Shown: positions 10,346-42,419 of the stretch, one piece after another | Layout of the letters: each line of letters begins with the position of its first letter | Position numbering within the stretch: the stretch's first letter is position 1 | NCBI GenBank assembly: GCA_038245255.1 | Contig: JBBRSQ010000003.1 | Location: forward strand, 1 to 50,561 | Length of the DNA stretch: 50,561 nucleotides | Direction: 5' to 3' | DNA from: Patescibacteria group bacterium | GTDB taxonomy: Bacteria > Patescibacteriota > Patescibacteriia > Patescibacteriales > UBA12465 | Made by a program: the position numbers and the translations under genes | The notes under the pieces: model-generated | Told to the model about the DNA's origin: nothing | The model's database searches: none | Seen by the model: the letters and a program-made list of their open reading frames with translations, nothing else

Positions 10346-12226
10346 CTAAGGATTGGTACTAGTGCTGGTAACCGGGCTAGAACTCGCTTTAATTTCTGTA
10401 GGCGCTGTTGAACTTGCGCTTTTAGCACTAACACCGACTAAACATACTTCTTGCCAAGGAACATAGTGTGATGAAAAGCGTTTTTCTAGAATCGGAGTAC
10501 TGGTCGCACCCTCAGGATAGATTACTTTATAGTCGAAATAAGTATCGGCGCCATTATGAGCTTTTTCAGTACATTTTTTTTGACCAGGCAATAAGTCAGT
10601 TGTTTCAATAATTTTTGCTGGAGCTGGTTTAACGATATTATAAATAACTGGAGTGGTGGTTGTAGCAACCCGGCCATCTTTTGTTCCCCAAAAATCGAAG
10701 TAAGCCATATTACCACTGATTCTTGATTGGATAAGAACGTAATTAGCAGAATCATTTATAAATTTTACATCAGGGTTGGGAATGTAAACAGCTGCGTCAG
10801 TTCCGGCCGGTTCATAATAAGAAACGCGATATGAATGGTTTCTCCTTTCGGTTATCGGTAGCCCGGAAGCAAGCGCCGCTCTGAAGACGGTAGTAGCGAT
10901 TTGGCAAAGACCACCGCCATATTCGGGAACCGTCTTATTACCTTTGATAACTAATTCCGGTAAATAACCAGTTTTTTGACTAACATCACCCAAAGTTTTA
11001 ACTAAGGAAAACTCTTCGCCTGGCGCCAAAAGAACTCCATTAACTGCAGCCGCTCCAACTTGGATATTTTTACGACGATTTGAAGTTGATCCTGAAAAAT
11101 CTGATTGCCCAGTCCCAATAATCTCTTTAATATTTAAAGTGGCGTCAGAATTTAGTTTTTCAACACTTAAGTCATTAACTACTATCGGCACTACTCTTTG
11201 TCCGCTTAAAAAAGCCTTAGTAATTTTTTCAGCTGATAAATCGAGATTAACTTGTCGACCATCAGTGCCGGCCTGCCAGTTATCTACTTTTCCATTATTA
11301 ATTATAAAGCGTGGACGCACTACTTCGAGATCAATTTCAGGAGAAACATTTATTTTTAAATATTCTTTTATTTTTTCTTGATCAAGAGAGAGACTAATAA
11401 CACCGTTAAGTTCCTTGATACTTATCCAAGAAAGTAATTTAGCTGGTTTAATCGACCAAGTTTTAGTCGTCGAACTAGCGCTGGTAGGTTCACTATAAGT
11501 AAGATCTAGTTTTTCTTGCCCAACCATTTGTTTAGCTTCACTGGCGAGAGCACTTAAATCAGATGCCTTGACGCTTGGGTATCTTGTTCGTGTCTTAATC
11601 GTTATCGGGTTGGTATTTAAGGAGTCTAAATTTGTTTTTAATTCGGAAAATAATAAATCATAATTTATTTCCTTGCCTAATTTTTCGGATAAGGTTACAA
11701 GTTCACCGCCATTAGTTGAAACTGAAAAAGAAGCGTTAGTTGAAGGAATGTTTAATTCACTAAATGTTTCGTTAAGAAGAATTTTAAATTCCTCTTCATC
11801 AATAGTGTAGTGGGGTAAAAGACTTTTATTAACTGCGAACTTTAATCTAAAAATAAGGTAATGCCAAAAAGTGTCAGGATGACTAAAGGCTAGAGCTTCG
11901 TTAACAGAATCAGTATTATTAAAAATGAGAGCTGGATAAGATAAATCAGAGTCAAAAGAAGAGCTAGTTGGATCAATATTTATTGATTTAGAGCCATAGC
12001 GGAAATCTAGACCGTCGGCAAGGATAGCGTCTGTTTTTTTATTTAAAATTGCAAAAGCGCCTTCAAAGTTTTCTCCGGAAAGGTTTATTGAGGCAACGCT
12101 TATATTTGGATAGATTCGTTCCCGATAATTATTTTTCCAAGAAATATAAGTAAGTGAAAAAACGCAGATTATTAAAAAAGGCACTAAAAATAAAAGTGAC
12201 TTCAAAATCCATTTTTTTGTTTTCAT
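10346..12226 (-). CDS. VanW family protein with putative peptidoglycan-binding repeats
   Basis: NRRKNI, GGGLCQIATTVFRAAL, ERRNHSY and GTDAAVY; N-terminal TM; start moved to MKTKKW (12226) because the longer frame overlaps the Hsp20 gene. Confidence 0.9.
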   Translation of the reverse strand: MKTKKWILKSLLFLVPFLIICVFSLTYISWKNNYRERIYPNISVASINLSGENFEGAFAILNKKTDAILADGLDFRYGSKSINIDPTSSSFDSDLSYPALIFNNTDSVNEALAFSHPDTFWHYLIFRLKFAVNKSLLPHYTIDEEEFKILLNETFSELNIPSTNASFSVSTNGGELVTLSEKLGKEINYDLLFSELKTNLDSLNTNPITIKTRTRYPSVKASDLSALASEAKQMVGQEKLDLTYSEPTSASSTTKTWSIKPAKLLSWISIKELNGVISLSLDQEKIKEYLKINVSPEIDLEVVRPRFIINNGKVDNWQAGTDGRQVNLDLSAEKITKAFLSGQRVVPIVVNDLSVEKLNSDATLNIKEIIGTGQSDFSGSTSNRRKNIQVGAAAVNGVLLAPGEEFSLVKTLGDVSQKTGYLPELVIKGNKTVPEYGGGLCQIATTVFRAALASGLPITERRNHSYRVSYYEPAGTDAAVYIPNPDVKFINDSANYVLIQSRISGNMAYFDFWGTKDGRVATTTTPVIYNIVKPAPAKIIETTDLLPGQKKCTEKAHNGADTYFDYKVIYPEGATSTPILEKRFSSHYVPWQEVCLVGVSAKSASSTAPTEIKASSSPVTSTSTNP

Positions 12227-14248: not shown

Positions 14249-16876
14249 ATGAAAATTGACTTAGAAAAGGCTTATAATCCAAGTGAAAATGAGGATAAAA
14301 TCTATGAAAAATGGGAAGAGTCAGGTTATTTTAATCCCGATAATTTAGATTTAGCTCCTGACGCAAAAGGCTATACAATTATTCTTCCGCCGCCAAATAT
14401 CACTGACAAGCTTCACATTGGTCACGCCACCATGCTCGCCATTGAAGATCTATTAGTTCGCTATCATCGTCTACTGGGTGAGCGAACATTATGGTTACCA
14501 GGGACAGATCATGCCGCGATTGCCACTCAAAACGTGGTTGAAAAGCGAATTTTTAAAGAAAAGGGGCTAACGCGTCATGATTTAGGCAAAGAAAATTTTT
14601 TAGAAGAGGTTTGGGCATTTTTAAAAACAACTCAAGGAACAATATTACATCAAACAATAAAATTAGGGGCTTCAATGGATTGGTCGCGCTTAGCTTTTAC
14701 GCTTGATGAGCAAAGAAAAGTCGCGGTTAGGACAATGTTTAAAGAAATGTACGACGAGGGCATAATTTATCGCGGCGAGAGGATAGTTAATTGGTGTCCA
14801 CGCTGTAAATCGACTTTAGCGGATGATGAGGTTGAATATAAAGAACAAATAGCGAAAATTTACACCTTTAAATATGACAAAGATTTCCCAATTGCTATTT
14901 CAACTACTCGTCCGGAAACTAAATTAGGAGATTCGGCGGTGGCTGTAAATCCTAAAGATGAACGTTATAAAAAATATATTGGCAAAGAATATAAAGTTAA
15001 CTTTTGCGAGCAAGAATTAAATATAAAAATTATTGCCGACCGAAATGTAGAGTCAGACTTTGGAACGGGTGCTCTTGGCGTTACGCCTGCTCATTCAATG
15101 GTTGATTGGCAAATGGCACAATCGAATAATTTAGCAATCATTAAAGTTATTAGCGAGGATGCTAAAATTTTGCCAGGATTTGGAAAATTTTCTGGCTTGA
15201 ATGTCGCTGAGGCGAGAACCGCTATTATTGAAGAATTAAAAACTCAAGGTTTATTAGAAAAAGAAGAAGAGTTAACAAATAATTTATCGGTTTGTTATCG
15301 CTGTGGCACCGCCATTGAACCGCTAGCTTCTAAACAGTGGTTTGTTTCAGTTGATAAGAAATTAGAAAGATTGGGCGGTCTATCACTAAAAGAAAAATCA
15401 ATCGCGGTTGCCGAGACCGGAGAAATTGAATTCATCCCTGAGAGATTTAATAAAAGATATCTTGATTGGATGAATAATTTACACGATTGGTGTATATCGC
15501 GACAAATTTGGTTTGGTCACGATATTCCGGTTTGGTATAAAGGAGATGAAATACAAGTTTGTATTAATTCGCCTAAAGAAGACGGCTGGATTCAAGATCC
15601 AGATACACTCGATACTTGGTTTTCTTCAGGGATGTGGACATTTTCAACTCTTGGTTGGCCAGAAAATTTTAAAGACGGGAAAAAGCTTAATGATTTGGCT
15701 AGATTTTATCCGACGCAGGTGCTTGAAACCGGCTATGAGATACTTACTCTTTGGGTTTCAAGGATGGTCATGATGTCTCTTTTTGCTTTAGGAGAAATTC
15801 CTTTTGAAAAAGTTTACCTTCATGGCATGGTCCAGGATAAAAATGGCAAAAAAATGTCTAAATCGAAAGGTAATGGTATTGATCCACTTGATATGATCGA
15901 AAGATATGGAGCGGACGCAACCCGCCTATCTCTTTTAATGGGATCTACTCCGGGAAATGATTTACGCTATAGCGAAGAAAAAAGTGAGGCCAAGAGAAAT
16001 TTTATAAATAAACTCTGGAATATCTCCCGGTTTATTCTTAGTGCGACTGATGAGAAATTTTTTGATGTTTCATATATAAACGCACCGCAAGCGAAAACAG
16101 AAAATGATAAATGGATATTAAGCGAGTTAATGAGTACTATTTATTCGGTTAATAATTACTTAACAAGTTTTAATTTTTCTCTCGCCGCCGAAGAGTTAAG
16201 CGATTTTACTTACTCTAGGCTAGCTGATTGGTATTTAGAAATAGCCAAGGTTGAAAAAGATAAAGAAGAAATACTAATTTATATTTTAAAGAATTTATTA
16301 ATTCTTTGGCACCCCTTCATCCCCTTTGTTACAGAAACGATTTGGGATAGTTTTAATAAGACCTTGTTGATGGTTGAAAAATGGCCTAAAGATATTTCTG
16401 TAAAAACGGAGGAGCGCGAAATCTCATCGGAAAAGGTAAGTTTTAATTTACTTCAAGAAATTGTTATCGCTATTCGTAATGCGCGGAGTGAAAATAAAAT
16501 TGATGCTTCAAGAAAATTAGAGGCTATTATTTATGGACACAAGAAAACTGAACTTGTAAGCGCTCAAAAAGAGTTAATAAAGAATTTAAAAACTGGTCTT
16601 GCGAGCATAGAGGTTAAAGAAGATGGGCCTAAAATAGAAGGAGCGATTATGGTTGTAACTAGTGAGCTAGAAATTTATCTTCTGGGAGCAATCGACGAAG
16701 TTAAAGAAAAGGCTCGCTTAAGTAAAGAAATAATAAATCTCCAGAAATTAATTAACTTGCAAGAACAAAAATTGAAAAATGATGATTTTGTTTCAAGAGC
16801 TCCTGAAAAAATAGTATTAGCTGAAAAAGAAAAATTAAATAATTATAAGCAAGAATTAAATAAAATCAGCGATTAA
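14249..16876 (+). CDS. valS: Valyl-tRNA synthetase
   Basis: PPPN, LHIGHA, GTDHAAIATQ, DWCISRQIWFGH, DTLDTWFSS, KMSKS and C-terminal coiled coil. Confidence 0.99.
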   Translation: MKIDLEKAYNPSENEDKIYEKWEESGYFNPDNLDLAPDAKGYTIILPPPNITDKLHIGHATMLAIEDLLVRYHRLLGERTLWLPGTDHAAIATQNVVEKRIFKEKGLTRHDLGKENFLEEVWAFLKTTQGTILHQTIKLGASMDWSRLAFTLDEQRKVAVRTMFKEMYDEGIIYRGERIVNWCPRCKSTLADDEVEYKEQIAKIYTFKYDKDFPIAISTTRPETKLGDSAVAVNPKDERYKKYIGKEYKVNFCEQELNIKIIADRNVESDFGTGALGVTPAHSMVDWQMAQSNNLAIIKVISEDAKILPGFGKFSGLNVAEARTAIIEELKTQGLLEKEEELTNNLSVCYRCGTAIEPLASKQWFVSVDKKLERLGGLSLKEKSIAVAETGEIEFIPERFNKRYLDWMNNLHDWCISRQIWFGHDIPVWYKGDEIQVCINSPKEDGWIQDPDTLDTWFSSGMWTFSTLGWPENFKDGKKLNDLARFYPTQVLETGYEILTLWVSRMVMMSLFALGEIPFEKVYLHGMVQDKNGKKMSKSKGNGIDPLDMIERYGADATRLSLLMGSTPGNDLRYSEEKSEAKRNFINKLWNISRFILSATDEKFFDVSYINAPQAKTENDKWILSELMSTIYSVNNYLTSFNFSLAAEELSDFTYSRLADWYLEIAKVEKDKEEILIYILKNLLILWHPFIPFVTETIWDSFNKTLLMVEKWPKDISVKTEEREISSEKVSFNLLQEIVIAIRNARSENKIDASRKLEAIIYGHKKTELVSAQKELIKNLKTGLASIEVKEDGPKIEGAIMVVTSELEIYLLGAIDEVKEKARLSKEIINLQKLINLQEQKLKNDDFVSRAPEKIVLAEKEKLNNYKQELNKISD

Positions 16877-32489: not shown

Positions 32490-34158
<1,669 letters not shown>

Positions 34159-38605: not shown

Positions 38606-40456
38606 ATGTTAGTCAAACAACAAAACACTCCGACGACTCCGTCTCGGAAAAACTTTTATGGCTCAGCGCAACGAAAGGTAACAGCAGATCCTTTCGTAAA
38701 AACTCCCGCCCTTGAAGTAAATAAACAACAAACACAAATCCGATCAAATCGACTAGCTGTCCAAGTGCCAGTTAAAAACTTATCTAGTGGGCCAAGCCTA
38801 AAAATTATTCCGCTCGGTGGGCAAGAAGAAGTTGGTCGAAATTGTACAATTTTTGAATACGATAATGACATCGTAATTCTTGACATGGGCTTGCAGTTTT
38901 CTGATGAAGACACTCCCGGTATCGATTATATTATTCCAAACGTTGCTTATCTGCGTGGTAAAGAAAGAAATATTCGTGGAGTTATATTTAGTCATGGTCA
39001 TCTTGATCATATCGGCGCAGCGCCAATTATGCTTGAGCAGTTAGGCAATCCTCCAATTATTGGGCGTAAACTTACTCTCGCGATGATTAAGCATCGAGTT
39101 GAAGATTATAAAAAAGGCACCACTAAAAGTTTAAAAATAATTACAATTGATTCAATTAACCAAAAGTTAAGCTTAGGAAAATTTAAAATAAGTTTTTTTC
39201 AAGTTGAGCATTCAATCATTGATGCCGTGGGTGTTATTATTGAGACACCTCACGGAACAGTAATCCATCCCGGCGATTGGATGATTGAAGATGATCCAAT
39301 TAATGGACCAGCTGTTGATTATAAACATTTATCTCTATTACCTTCCCCGAGAATATTAATGCTTGAGAGTCTTGGCGTCGCTTATACAAAAGAACGCATC
39401 CCCGCTAAAACTACCTTAGCTAATTTAGAGATGATAATCAGAGAAGCTAAGGGTCGCGTTATTATTGGTACTTTTGCGTCTCAGCTAGAACGTATTACTA
39501 GTCTCCTGGCTTACTCTGAAAAAATTGGTAAGAAAGTTGCGCTTGATGGTTACGGCATGAAGATGAATGTTAAAATCGCTCAAGAGCTTGGTTATATTCC
39601 TGCCCATAAAAATATATTAATTCCAATTGAAGATATTCATAAATATCCGGAAGATAAAATTGTTATTATTTGTACGGGCGCACAAGGAGAATCAAATGCA
39701 GTCTTTTCTCGAATTGTTAATAATAATCATCGCTACGTTACGATTAAGAAATCAGATGTAATTGTTTTTTCATCTTCAGTAATTCCTGGTAATGAAAGAT
39801 CAATTCAAAAAGTAAAAGATCAATTATATCGCGTAAGTGATAATGTTATTCATAGTAGTCTTATGGATGTTCATTCCGGTGGACACGCTAATGCTGAAGA
39901 TATTAAAAAAATTCTTTTGCAGATTAAGCCTGATTATTTTTTACCAGTTTATGCCAATCACTACATGCTAGTAGAAGCAAAGAAGCTTGCAATGCGTAAT
40001 GGTTTTAGAGAGGATCAAATTTTCGTTCTTGATAATGGCCAGATACTTAAATTTCAAAAAGACAGGAAACCAATTCTTCTAAAAGAGAAAGCGAATACAG
40101 ACTACGTTATGGTTGATGGGCTCGGCGTCGGTGATGTTTCGGAAATTGTTCTTCGAGATCGAAGACTAATGTCCGATGACGGTATGATTGTTATCATTGC
40201 GACTATTGATGCTAAGACTGGCACAATCATCGGCAACCCAGATTTAATTTCGCGCGGTTTCGTGCACATGAAAGAAAATCGGGACTTAATTGAAAAAACA
40301 CGAATGAGAGTTAAAAAAATCGTTAAAGACAAGAATCCGATGACTGCCGCTGATGACGATTACTTGAAGAATAAAATTAGAAATGATATCGGACAGTTCT
40401 TGTTTCAAGTAACGAAACGACGTCCAATGGTTCTTCCGGTTGTTATAAAGGTATAA
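38606..40456 (+). CDS. rnj: Ribonuclease J
   Basis: IIPLGGQEEVGRN, SHGHLDHIG, TGAQGE, IPGNE, HSGGHA and RRPMVLPV. Confidence 0.97.
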   Translation: MLVKQQNTPTTPSRKNFYGSAQRKVTADPFVKTPALEVNKQQTQIRSNRLAVQVPVKNLSSGPSLKIIPLGGQEEVGRNCTIFEYDNDIVILDMGLQFSDEDTPGIDYIIPNVAYLRGKERNIRGVIFSHGHLDHIGAAPIMLEQLGNPPIIGRKLTLAMIKHRVEDYKKGTTKSLKIITIDSINQKLSLGKFKISFFQVEHSIIDAVGVIIETPHGTVIHPGDWMIEDDPINGPAVDYKHLSLLPSPRILMLESLGVAYTKERIPAKTTLANLEMIIREAKGRVIIGTFASQLERITSLLAYSEKIGKKVALDGYGMKMNVKIAQELGYIPAHKNILIPIEDIHKYPEDKIVIICTGAQGESNAVFSRIVNNNHRYVTIKKSDVIVFSSSVIPGNERSIQKVKDQLYRVSDNVIHSSLMDVHSGGHANAEDIKKILLQIKPDYFLPVYANHYMLVEAKKLAMRNGFREDQIFVLDNGQILKFQKDRKPILLKEKANTDYVMVDGLGVGDVSEIVLRDRRLMSDDGMIVIIATIDAKTGTIIGNPDLISRGFVHMKENRDLIEKTRMRVKKIVKDKNPMTAADDDYLKNKIRNDIGQFLFQVTKRRPMVLPVVIKV

Positions 40457-40480: not shown

Positions 40481-40507
40481 AAAAATCCCCTAATAATGGG
40501 GATTTTT
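40481..40507 (+). terminator. rnj terminator
   Basis: AAAAATCCCC-TAATAAT-GGGGATTTTT. Confidence 0.75.
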
Positions 40508-40510
40508 GAT

Positions 40511-40564
40511 TGTTCATAAGATGTGGATAAAAGGCTTGACAAGTACATATACTTATGATATATT
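40511..40564 (+). promoter_or_regulatory. Two DnaA boxes followed by a near-consensus sigma70 promoter
   Basis: TGTTCATAA 40511 and TGTGGATAA 40522 (perfect box); TTGACA 40536-17 bp-TATATT 40559 with TG extension. Confidence 0.7.
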
Positions 40565-40570
40565 ACATAG

Positions 40571-40726
40571 TCAGCGTAAAAGTAATTTTAGTTGATATAA
40601 AAGACCGCTTTAAACGGGTCAGGCACGACAAGCATGGGGATTTTCTTGCTAGGGTTTTTCCGGCATCGCGCTCGAAAGTGCCTAGAAGAAATTTTCTTGC
40701 CTACCCGTTTAAGTCGGTCTTTTTTT
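40571..40726 (+). ncRNA. Candidate structured small RNA (about 155 nt), family unassigned
   Basis: Own promoter; 5' hairpin with GUAA tetraloop; long imperfect rod 40599-40723; G-U pairs favour the + strand; terminal U-tract. Confidence 0.6.
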
Positions 40727-40740
40727 GTATTTAGGGGTAA

Positions 40741-41478
40741 TTATTCAAATAGTCTATCTTTTCCAACAATAACATTTACCTTATCACGCATAATTCCGAT
40801 TTCGACTGGAGTATTAATTTCCAAAACACCATCAACAATTAATTTTTCTTGAGGATTGCTTATTTTTAATTTTTTTACAGTTATTATTGATTCGTCGTGT
40901 CGTCGAGCCTTGATTAAGATATCAAGTTTTCCATCGTGAGGATTTGATTTAACAGTTTCTTTTTGATCACTTAGAAGATTTATTATTTGCACTTCCCCTT
41001 TCTCGGTCATTTCTAAAGTGTAATCATCAATTTCTATTGTGGTGCCCTGGCTTTGGATTGAGGCTTGGTTAAGAAAATAATAACTACCAGCTAAACCCAA
41101 GTCTATTTTTTCAACTCGACGGGCTAGTAAAATATTACAAGCATCATCAATGTTTTTTATACCAAAAGTTGTGGCAATAGAGTTATCATCACCGATAGGA
41201 ATTAGACCAAGCAAAGTGTTTTTCTGGAAATCGCCATATATTTCGGTATCAATAATCGCTCCAATGATTTTATTAACTGTTTGATTATTGCCGACAGCGA
41301 TTATAGTTTTTGCGCCAAGTTTAATTTCGTTTTGAATTGTTCCTTTTATATTTTTAATTCCACCCAATCGTATAATTTTTCCATTCAGGCCCAGATCGGT
41401 AAGGCGAATTTCTAAACGATTAATTGCTCGGCTATGCTTAGTTTTGTTTAAATATTCATCGTAGATATAAACATGCAT
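40741..41478 (-). CDS. Diacylglycerol-kinase (YegS/DgkB)-fold protein with degenerate ATP motif
   Basis: IIAVGNNQTVNKI (cf. GGDGT), LGLIPIGDDNSIA, IDLG..YFLN, PHDGKLDI and IVDG. Confidence 0.8.
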   Translation of the reverse strand: MHVYIYDEYLNKTKHSRAINRLEIRLTDLGLNGKIIRLGGIKNIKGTIQNEIKLGAKTIIAVGNNQTVNKIIGAIIDTEIYGDFQKNTLLGLIPIGDDNSIATTFGIKNIDDACNILLARRVEKIDLGLAGSYYFLNQASIQSQGTTIEIDDYTLEMTEKGEVQIINLLSDQKETVKSNPHDGKLDILIKARRHDESIITVKKLKISNPQEKLIVDGVLEINTPVEIGIMRDKVNVIVGKDRLFE

Positions 41479-42063: not shown

Positions 42064-42135
42064 GTCTTCGTAGTTCAACGGATAGAACAAGAGCCTCCTA
42101 AGTTCTAGATCCAGGTTCAATTCCTGGCGAGGACA
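42064..42135 (+). tRNA. tRNA-Arg(CCT)
   Basis: Acceptor GTCTTCG/CGAGGAC; anticodon arm AGAGC-CTCCTAA-GTTCT. Confidence 0.94.
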
Positions 42136-42345: not shown

Positions 42346-42419
42346 GGGCCATTAGCTCAGTTGGCTAGAGCGCTTCCATGGCATGGAAGAGGTCAAGGGT
42401 TCAAGTCCCTTATGGTCCA
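42346..42419 (+). tRNA. tRNA-Ala(GGC)
   Basis: G3-U70; anticodon arm CTTCC-ATGGCAT-GGAAG (A32-U38). Confidence 0.95.

Follow-up and report, generated by a model that had tools for sequence, protein, structure and literature searches.

What is encoded at positions 40571–40726 of a Patescibacteria contig, between two convergent genes and with no annotation of its own? The window analyzed here, i.e., the whole stretch of 50,561 nucleotides (nt) of contig JBBRSQ010000003.1, comes from a genome assembly of 818,562 bases on 66 contigs that is 93.66% complete. A preliminary description of the window had proposed at this place an RNA gene of about 155 nt with its own promoter, and had considered either a divergent mimic of 6S RNA or a new class of Patescibacteria small RNA (sRNA). 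The locus is an independent, single-copy RNA gene on the plus strand with its own promoter and terminator, and it belongs to an uncatalogued family found throughout a class of ultra-small bacteria. The promoter, the rod-shaped fold and the terminal U7 were present as described. The conserved unit is shorter than proposed, i.e., an unbranched rod of about 128 nt (40599–40726) that does not include the 5' hairpin, and we refer to it as the rod RNA.

The rod occurs in one full copy in the window's genome, where three other matches are only 15–19 nt long. A DNA search of relatives covered 41 genomes: besides that of the window, 24 belong to its genus and 16 each represent a further family of the order. 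The rod was found in all 41, normally at one strong place each. With the covariance model R1, 127 of the 151 genomes in the class draw were positive, i.e., 117 of 137 genera; in a draw from the phylum all six same-class genomes were positive, as was one of the 144 others. A dispersed repeat such as a miniature inverted-repeat transposable element was rejected on copy number: the window's genome has a single full copy, and of the 127 class genomes positive with R1 nearly all carry the rod at one place, with occasional tandem pairs. Many dispersed copies and lack of conservation, which the preliminary description had named as grounds to abandon its proposal, were thus not what we found.

Compensatory changes support the fold at both evolutionary depths. 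Alignment A1 covers the order with 36 of 40 extracted sequences; we omitted one at a contig end (L026) and three with apical insertions of 35–75 nt (L034, L035, L038). RNAalifold on this MAFFT-based alignment gave 36 pairs, of which 18 show compensatory changes. In the class-wide alignment A3 (48 sequences), 31 of 36 pairs had changed on both sides. Standard pairs filled 92.7% of the cells in A3 compared with 69.1% in shuffles, none of 500 shuffles reached 92.7%, and controls with slid partners were 44–60% paired; A3 was fitted to the model and so favors the model's structure, and the A1 result points the same way. The plus strand is favored, as had been proposed. Model R1 scores the locus with 143.5 bits on the plus strand and 43.8 bits on the minus strand, and the rod has many G-U pairs, each of which would turn into C-A on the minus strand. 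From these wobble pairs and scores, the plus-strand RNA appears to be the selected molecule.

The elements that frame the transcript are:
40536–40541, plus strand: −35 hexamer TTGACA, from the promoter scan.
40556–40564, plus strand: extended −10 element TG-A-TATATT (TG at 40556–40557, TATATT at 40559–40564), following a 17-nt spacer.
40571–40595, plus strand: 5' leader hairpin UCAGC-G-UAAAA-GUAA-UUUUA-GUUGA, from the predicted fold.
40720–40726, plus strand: 3'-terminal U7 tract of the rod, which together with helix P1 forms an intrinsic terminator.

The promoter at 40536–40564 matches the consensus at 11 of 12 positions and has the TG in addition, and is thus near-consensus of the sigma-70 extended −10 type; from it, a transcription start near 40571 is predicted. 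Among the class loci, 22 of 34 have a promoter with at least 10 of 12 matches, a perfect TTGACA and the TG within 80 nt upstream, compared with 14 of 720 shuffles. The TGnTAnnnT box is kept in relatives, and a run of at least four T stands at the 3' end of 22 of 36 class matches. The plus strand of 40571–40726 (156 nt) folds into the small 5' hairpin and one long rod ending in U7 (−61.1 kcal/mol, z −6.51, none of 200 shuffles as good); the minus-strand fold is weaker (−51.5 kcal/mol, z −5.31). As stated in the preliminary description, the rod is GC-rich (0.46 compared with 0.358 genome-wide) and no protein gene follows on this strand: downstream on the plus strand we found no open reading frame (ORF) of at least 60 amino acids (aa) and no known RNA before the transfer RNA (tRNA) genes at 42064. 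The overlapping ORFs of 59 and 72 aa cannot credibly be coding, as the length of the region changes among relatives by numbers not divisible by three.

The leader between promoter and rod is not conserved. The 5' hairpin folds as had been drawn, but its sequence differs already within the genus, and beyond close kin only about 40597–40729 can be aligned. The −10 box ends 9–50 nt before the rod among the class loci, i.e., the leader is variable, and a comparison of relatives showed no conserved alternative structure in it. The leader hairpin is probably dispensable or trimmed. A riboswitch or cis-acting leader was rejected, as the rod is followed by a U-tract and then a convergent gene and the leader is not conserved.

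We compared the locus with known RNA families in Rfam 15. Over the whole window only the 16S ribosomal RNA (rRNA) and nine tRNAs passed the gathering thresholds. The locus alone gave 18 sub-threshold matches at E≤10, none of them 6S RNA, signal recognition particle (SRP) RNA or another plausible family; the matches that touch the rod, all far under their cut-offs, were to a Listeria sRNA and to microRNA precursors of plants. The Rfam check recommended in the preliminary description therefore leaves the locus without a family. Sub-threshold matches to enterobacterial sRNAs and leaders come from the terminator of the upstream RNase J gene (40481–40507) and are artefacts of terminator shape. A full-text literature search, with subscription journals and supplements outside its scope, returned no paper on the rod RNA, on structured RNAs from Patescibacteria or on 6S RNA within the candidate phyla radiation; passages in PMC10768705 concern host genes only, and those in PMC8321541 are irrelevant to the rod RNA. 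With no Rfam 15 family and no literature found, we rate the rod as a new RNA class.

The family is also found under named lineages. A search of a named genome collection for an exact pattern gave at least 120 stretches, and 71 of the 80 matches listed hold a full R1 match; for this 18-mer with two degenerate positions, about 70 chance matches are expected in the collection of 596 billion bases. The 71 loci with the full match bear labels such as Candidatus Falkowbacteria, Uhrbacteria, Buchananbacteria and Kerfeldbacteria (metagenome-assembled genomes) and Parcubacteria or Patescibacteria group, and many are labeled only "bacterium" or by a doubtful placeholder. Nine of the 80 lack the RNA, eight of them under labels of other lineages (two being chromosomes of 5.8 and 6.5 Mb) and the ninth under Parcubacteria. 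Carriage by phages was rejected, as viral contigs gave two exact 18-mer matches of which neither was the RNA. Tandem second copies, 220–245 nt apart and with the core kept, occur in at least six named loci (L046, L049, L065, L067, L099, L108) and in two of the genomes (G084:C2:276462-276803 and G102:C3:71876-72127), and the copies of a pair have diverged from each other. At the tandem locus L190, a recognizable promoter stands at the first copy only.

What the selected molecule looks like follows from the fold and the comparison:
40599–40607 with 40715–40723, plus strand: helix P1, fold.
40609–40619 with 40703–40713, plus strand: helix P2, fold.
40621–40625 with 40698–40702, plus strand: helix P3, AGGCA/UGCCU, fold and comparison.
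40626–40636, plus strand: 11-nt one-sided 5' bulge CGACAAGCAUG, unpaired in fold and consensus, proposed recognition site.
40636–40640 with 40693–40697, plus strand: helix P4, GGGGA/UUUCU, G-U-rich, fold and comparison.
40642–40647 with 40686–40691, plus strand: helix P5, fold.
40649–40653 with 40681–40685, plus strand: helix P6, fold.
40656–40660 with 40674–40678, plus strand: helix P7, fold.
40662–40672, plus strand: apical hairpin GGC-loop-GCU, comparison.
40694–40699, plus strand: conserved UUCUUG on the 3' strand, facing the bulge and P4, comparison.

The bulge CGACAAGCAUG is invariant in the 36 sequences of A1, and the exceptions in the class loci are an A-to-G change of the fifth base in three loci and a 1-nt deletion in L041. 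The class-wide invariant core reads 5'-CA|CGACAAGCAUG|GG(G/A)-3', together with UUCUUG on the 3' strand. Helix P3 directly below the bulge covaries (AGGCA/UGCCU, AGACA/UGUCU, AGUCA/UGACU, ACUCA/UGAGU, AUCCA/UGGAU), therefore CGACAAGCAUG is a true one-sided bulge and not part of a helix as drawn before. The earlier middle helix AGGCACGACAA/UUUUCUUGCCU with a GCAUGGGG bulge is accordingly replaced by AGGCA/UGCCU, the 11-nt bulge and GGGGA/UUUCU. The successive pairs of P4 were G-U in 44, G-C in 43, G-U in 41, G-U in 33 and A-U in 38 of the 48 sequences. As its G-U pairs stay G-U and are hardly ever replaced by G-C, the sequence of P4 is constrained as well as its pairing.

The apex, by comparison, is the most variable part of the rod. 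A UUUUC/GAAAG helix with a GGC/GCU hairpin was paired in 80.8% of cells, with compensatory changes in six of eight pairs, and describes the apex better than the GCGCU/AGUGC of the preliminary description, which was paired in 63.7%. In relatives the apical hairpin is often GGC(UUCG)GCU, and variants of it, e.g., GGUC(UUCG)GACU, covary. Apical insertions of about 30–75 nt lengthen the terminal hairpin in some families (L034, L035, L038, L170).

One genome outside the class, G316, was positive with R1. Its rod is syntenic, convergent to a VanW gene, and has its own TTGACA promoter. In the rod loci of this genus (L206, i.e., G316:C11:79267-79382 on the minus strand, and L241 and L242) CC stands in place of the bulge. 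Either the bulge is not indispensable there or the function has changed in that lineage, and this rod represents either a bulge-less relative or an ancestral form.

Which function would select for such a molecule? An invariant loop set in covarying helices, wobble pairs that do not yield and a constrained pyrimidine strand are the usual signature of a specific macromolecular contact. We tentatively propose, with somewhat less than even confidence, that the rod is an abundant, stable, trans-acting RNA whose invariant internal loop docks a conserved cellular protein. The near-consensus extended −10 promoter would drive a short non-conserved leader and then the rod of about 128 nt ending in the U-tract. 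The docking site would comprise the bulge CGACAAGCAUG, the G-U-rich helix GGGGA/UUUCU and the facing UUCUUG, and the RNA would act as a scaffold or as a sequestering decoy. Its base, in which A-tract and U-tract are paired, would protect both ends and would also terminate both the rod RNA and the convergent gene. A scaffold or decoy fits better than a catalytic or antisense role because the bulge has no target complement and the gene is duplicated in places; the tandem second copies give a regulatory rather than a catalytic flavor. A more specific version seems to us rather doubtful: the rod would belong, as RNA subunit, to a ribonucleoprotein that is class-wide and so far undescribed, with the bulge bound by a conserved protein that is possibly connected with envelope biogenesis, given the old linkage of the rod to VanW.

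Several observations weigh against protein docking by a class-wide RNA. No match was found in 24 of 151 class genomes, where filters were strict and assemblies incomplete. In all three genomes of the G316 genus CC replaces the 11-nt bulge. No partner protein is encoded in conserved proximity, and the conserved neighbor, VanW with PG_binding_4, is an envelope protein. Four RNA sequencing runs from four studies each contained one short contig of a relative, corresponding to 40599–40724, 40550–40725, 40661–40724 and 40618–40782; these metatranscriptome contig ends do not match the predicted ends, some overrun them, DNA carry-over is possible, and the contigs are neither proof of a discrete transcript nor evidence of expression. 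Moreover, an invariant single-stranded loop fits a nucleic-acid target equally well as a protein.

This last point is the core of another explanation, in which the rod is a trans-acting base-pairing RNA and the bulge is the seed for an invariant messenger RNA (mRNA) start or a stable RNA such as 16S rRNA. The bulge has the properties of a seed, being single-stranded, 11 nt long and invariant, and tandem gene copies like those of the rod are common among regulatory sRNAs. In the window's own 16S gene, helix 34 has a universally conserved 5' strand (about 33027, minus strand) to which the bulge is complementary at 10 of 11 positions; this match is interrupted by a G-G mismatch in its center and is statistically indistinguishable from chance. 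The core resembles the genome's own rRNAs locally no more than expected by chance (in the best case 9 of 200 shuffles were as good, with four comparisons). The window's genome contains no exact complement of CGACAAGCAUG, and none of five one-mismatch complements lies at a credible gene start. We hence rejected rRNA mimicry and antisense targets of the bulge on chance-level similarity and the lack of a convincing target. Furthermore, a simple seed would need neither the facing UUCUUG nor the G-U pairs, both of which are constrained as well. We consider base pairing through the bulge unlikely. The 16S gene of the window (32578–34059, minus strand; a match of 1482 nt to a model of 1533 positions) is unlinked to the pair of 23S and 5S genes, which lie intact on contig 14 (L263, 14428–17624).

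The position of the rod between convergent genes invites a different explanation, and the neighboring features in the window are:
38606–40456, plus strand: RNase J gene (RNase_J_b_CASP, RNase_J_C), upstream neighbor, context only.
40481–40507: intrinsic terminator of the RNase J gene, 10-bp stem and T-run.
40741–41478, minus strand: gene with DAGK_cat domain, convergent, ending beside the rod, context only.

Two plus-strand tRNA genes (42064–42135 and 42346–42419) lie about 1.3 kb downstream of the rod, with two minus-strand ORFs between.

The rod could mainly be a long bidirectional terminator, and its plus-strand transcript would then be antisense to the 3' end of the neighboring envelope gene, which is VanW in most of the class and a DAGK-type gene here, and tune the stability of that mRNA. 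The G+C-rich base of the rod is indeed flanked like such a terminator, with U7 on the plus strand and, on the minus strand, UUUUAUAU as the complement of the 5' A-tract (40599–40602); this fits the base alone and not the element as a whole. The minus strand folds well too, the DAGK_cat stop codon is 14 nt from the rod, and transcription of the convergent gene most likely terminates at the antisense rod.

We analyzed the neighborhoods of 28 class loci besides the window's, leaving out four on short contigs (L171, L185, L187, L191), one nearly identical to L176 (L177), one with an apical insertion (L195) and one with a partial match (L204). A convergent VanW/PG_binding_4 gene stops within 80 nt of the RNA 3' end in 16 of the 28, with a gap of at most 7 nt in eight. 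In the others we found VanW convergent at 515–610 nt (two loci), VanW upstream on the same strand (two), a PG_binding_4 ORF (one) or other neighbors (seven); VanW thus lies within about 600 nt of the RNA in 20 of 28. The VanW arrangement recurs in G316, and apart from that genome the rod was not found at any of 14 VanW loci that we inspected in other classes (12 genomes), an association that also speaks for a role in terminating or regulating the envelope gene. The upstream neighbor varies (RuvB, NIF3, ClpP, trigger factor and others), and at one class locus a gene for an AbiEii-type nucleotidyltransferase toxin is convergent in place of VanW (L198, 833–1468).

However, a length of 128 nt, an invariant 11-nt bulge and a near-consensus promoter of its own are all more than a terminator requires, and the G-U pairs and model scores mark the plus-strand RNA as the selected one. 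The partner differs in the window's genus, where VanW is 30 kb off (10688–11080) and the DAGK_cat gene occupies the convergent position, and again in seven of the 28 class loci, while the RNA is unchanged. The leader has no conserved alternative structure that could switch termination. We therefore assign a low probability to termination or antisense regulation as the main role.

Is the rod then a 6S-like regulator, as the preliminary description had suggested? It would mimic promoter DNA and bind the RNA polymerase holoenzyme with the bulged strand as template, and it may template short product RNAs. Several features agree with this. A central unpaired 5' strand lies between a basal stem of about 25 bp and an apical stem of about 24 bp, and apical insertions are tolerated. 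The Rfam 6S model RF00013 had no match at the locus or elsewhere in the window's genome at E≤10; it matched none of the 151 class genomes, compared with 22 of 144 genomes of other classes (seven over threshold, lengths 100–197 nt). This complementary distribution of RF00013 and rod by itself suggested a divergent 6S RNA, and we therefore built a lineage-specific model, R2, from 17 Patescibacteria 6S sequences, omitting L215 (197 nt) and four weaker or longer matches.

Model R2 detected canonical 6S RNA in 18 of 151 class genomes, always away from the rod locus, and 16 of these 18 also carry the rod (the exceptions are G051 and G130). The hallmarks of 6S RNA are present in eight of the ten best R2 loci: a closing stem, GGGA(G/A) on entry to the apical stem and (C/U)ACCCA on exit from it, and a −10 box directly upstream; Rfam at E≤0.01 does not detect them. 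As canonical 6S RNA and rod RNA co-exist, we conclude that the rod RNA is a different gene. On the rod itself (40599–40724) R2 gave 6.8 bits with an E-value of 7.8. In the covariation-supported structure the loop is no two-sided bubble of 6S type, with 11 nt unpaired on the 5' strand and 0–1 nt opposite, although opening of the weak, G-U-rich helix P4 next to it could give a 16-by-6 loop. Synteny differs as well: in other classes 6S RNA follows a Peptidase_M50 gene of about 200–270 aa in 8 of 10 loci, whereas the rod pairs with VanW. Finally, in the G316 genus the rod is kept but the bulge is missing. Orthology to 6S RNA is thus rejected on co-occurrence and structure, and a 6S-like mode of action is very improbable.

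Neither RF00013 nor a whole-assembly search with R2 gave a canonical 6S RNA in the window's genome. The only R2 match there (14880–15020, 18.6 bits) is false, lying antisense inside an ORF of 875 aa with a fold z-score of +0.76, and none was present in the 170-nt spacer between Peptidase_M50 and rpsL. The genome thus seems to lack a recognizable 6S RNA, and a functional take-over by the rod is left as a small possibility. The same spacer (L221, 1264–1434, minus strand, contig 6; Peptidase_M50 of 205 aa) contains a promoter-like site TTGACT-17-TAAATT as well as a short hairpin and T-run (ATCCTGAAAAGTCAGGAT TATTTTT), which may be a very short transcript or an rpsL attenuator. The canonical 6S RNAs of Patescibacteria are short, about 130–197 nt (L208–L217 and L243–L252 in other classes, L253–L262 in the same class), and many stay below the Rfam threshold; in three of eight class 6S loci an NDK gene lies upstream.

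A divergent SRP (4.5S) RNA, which the rod resembles in size, shape and copy number, is effectively refuted and has next to no probability, given that no model matches, Ffh and FtsY were not found and the apex is variable. It is true that no SRP RNA was detected with RF00169 or RF01854 at the locus or in the window's genome, or with RF00169 in any of the 41 relatives, but the SRP models find nothing because the pathway appears to be gone. The Ffh M domain (PF02978) was found in none of the 41 relatives and 151 class genomes, and the SRP GTPase domain (PF00448) was not found in the window's genome, with one weak 54-residue P-loop match among 151 genomes of the phylum. TIGR00959 (ffh) had no match and TIGR00064 (ftsY) only weak P-loop matches, while control genomes gave matches in every SRP protein search. 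A six-frame scan showed neither a DT[AS]GR motif nor an SRP-type P-loop context. In the draws, the absence of Ffh, FtsY and 4.5S RNA appears to be phylum-wide. Domain IV of SRP RNA has an apical GNRA tetraloop with symmetric and asymmetric loops; the apex of the rod, where this domain would sit, is its most variable part and tolerates insertions of 30–75 nt. A motif scan of the locus found no motif like SRP helix 8, and signatures of tRNA, transfer-messenger RNA (tmRNA) and RNase P RNA were missing there too, all in agreement with the preliminary description. Loss of ffh and ffs has been published for Parcubacteria (PMC4508563), with which these results agree.

Other identities were dismissed directly. 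The rRNAs, tmRNA and RNase P RNA were each found elsewhere in the genome (tmRNA by ARAGORN, RNase P RNA on contig 5 with 178.8 bits), and a Y RNA was rejected as TROVE/Ro60 (PF05731) gave no matches in this 93.7% complete genome.

Patescibacteria account for a large share of bacterial diversity, and their tiny genomes have only a very small set of non-coding RNAs. An RNA present in single copy, strongly promoted and kept with an invariant 11-nt loop across more than 100 genera is very likely important to these cells. If the ribonucleoprotein version is true, the rod would join RNase P RNA, tmRNA and 6S RNA as one more housekeeping RNA, arising in a lineage that has lost SRP. The rod gives a starting point in the search for a new RNA-protein partnership in organisms that no longer have SRP. 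Model R1, which recovers 127 of 151 class genomes, is ready for use in annotation pipelines. In this class the standard 6S model overlooks canonical 6S RNA (0 of 151 genomes compared with 18 of 151 with R2), which alters the reading of apparent 6S absence.

How does the rod RNA compare with known systems? Like 6S RNA (RF00013), it is stand-alone, strongly promoted and mostly double-stranded, in a size class of 130–200 nt, with an unpaired central 5' strand between two long stems, and is single per genome with two copies in some lineages. In contrast to 6S RNA, it has no two-sided bubble, no hairpin on the 3' strand and no GGGAG...CACCCACCUGG signature of Patescibacteria 6S RNA; it matches no 6S model, co-exists with 6S RNA in 16 genomes and differs in synteny. 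With 4.5S RNA (RF00169) it shares a single hairpin of about 110–130 nt with internal loops, a single copy and a housekeeping-like distribution, but the conserved element is a bulge in the middle of the rod and not an apical, GNRA-capped domain IV. Y RNA and YrlA likewise have paired 5' and 3' ends, a long stem, a conserved bulge region and a 3' U-tail at about 100–130 nt; the rod has no tRNA-like module, no Ro60 gene in its genome and no Rfam match. Bidirectional terminators show the same A-tract, G+C-rich stem and U-tract between convergent genes with a stop codon abutting the stem, whereas the rod is 5–10 times longer and has its own promoter, an invariant internal loop and strand-specific G-U pairs. 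Finally, sequestering RNAs of the CsrB/RsmZ type and orphan RNAs from comparative genomics are, as we propose for the rod, abundant and trans-acting, with a conserved unpaired presumed protein site and duplicated genes; the rod differs from CsrB/RsmZ in offering one site per molecule, with the motif CGACAAGCAUG, instead of many GGA repeats.

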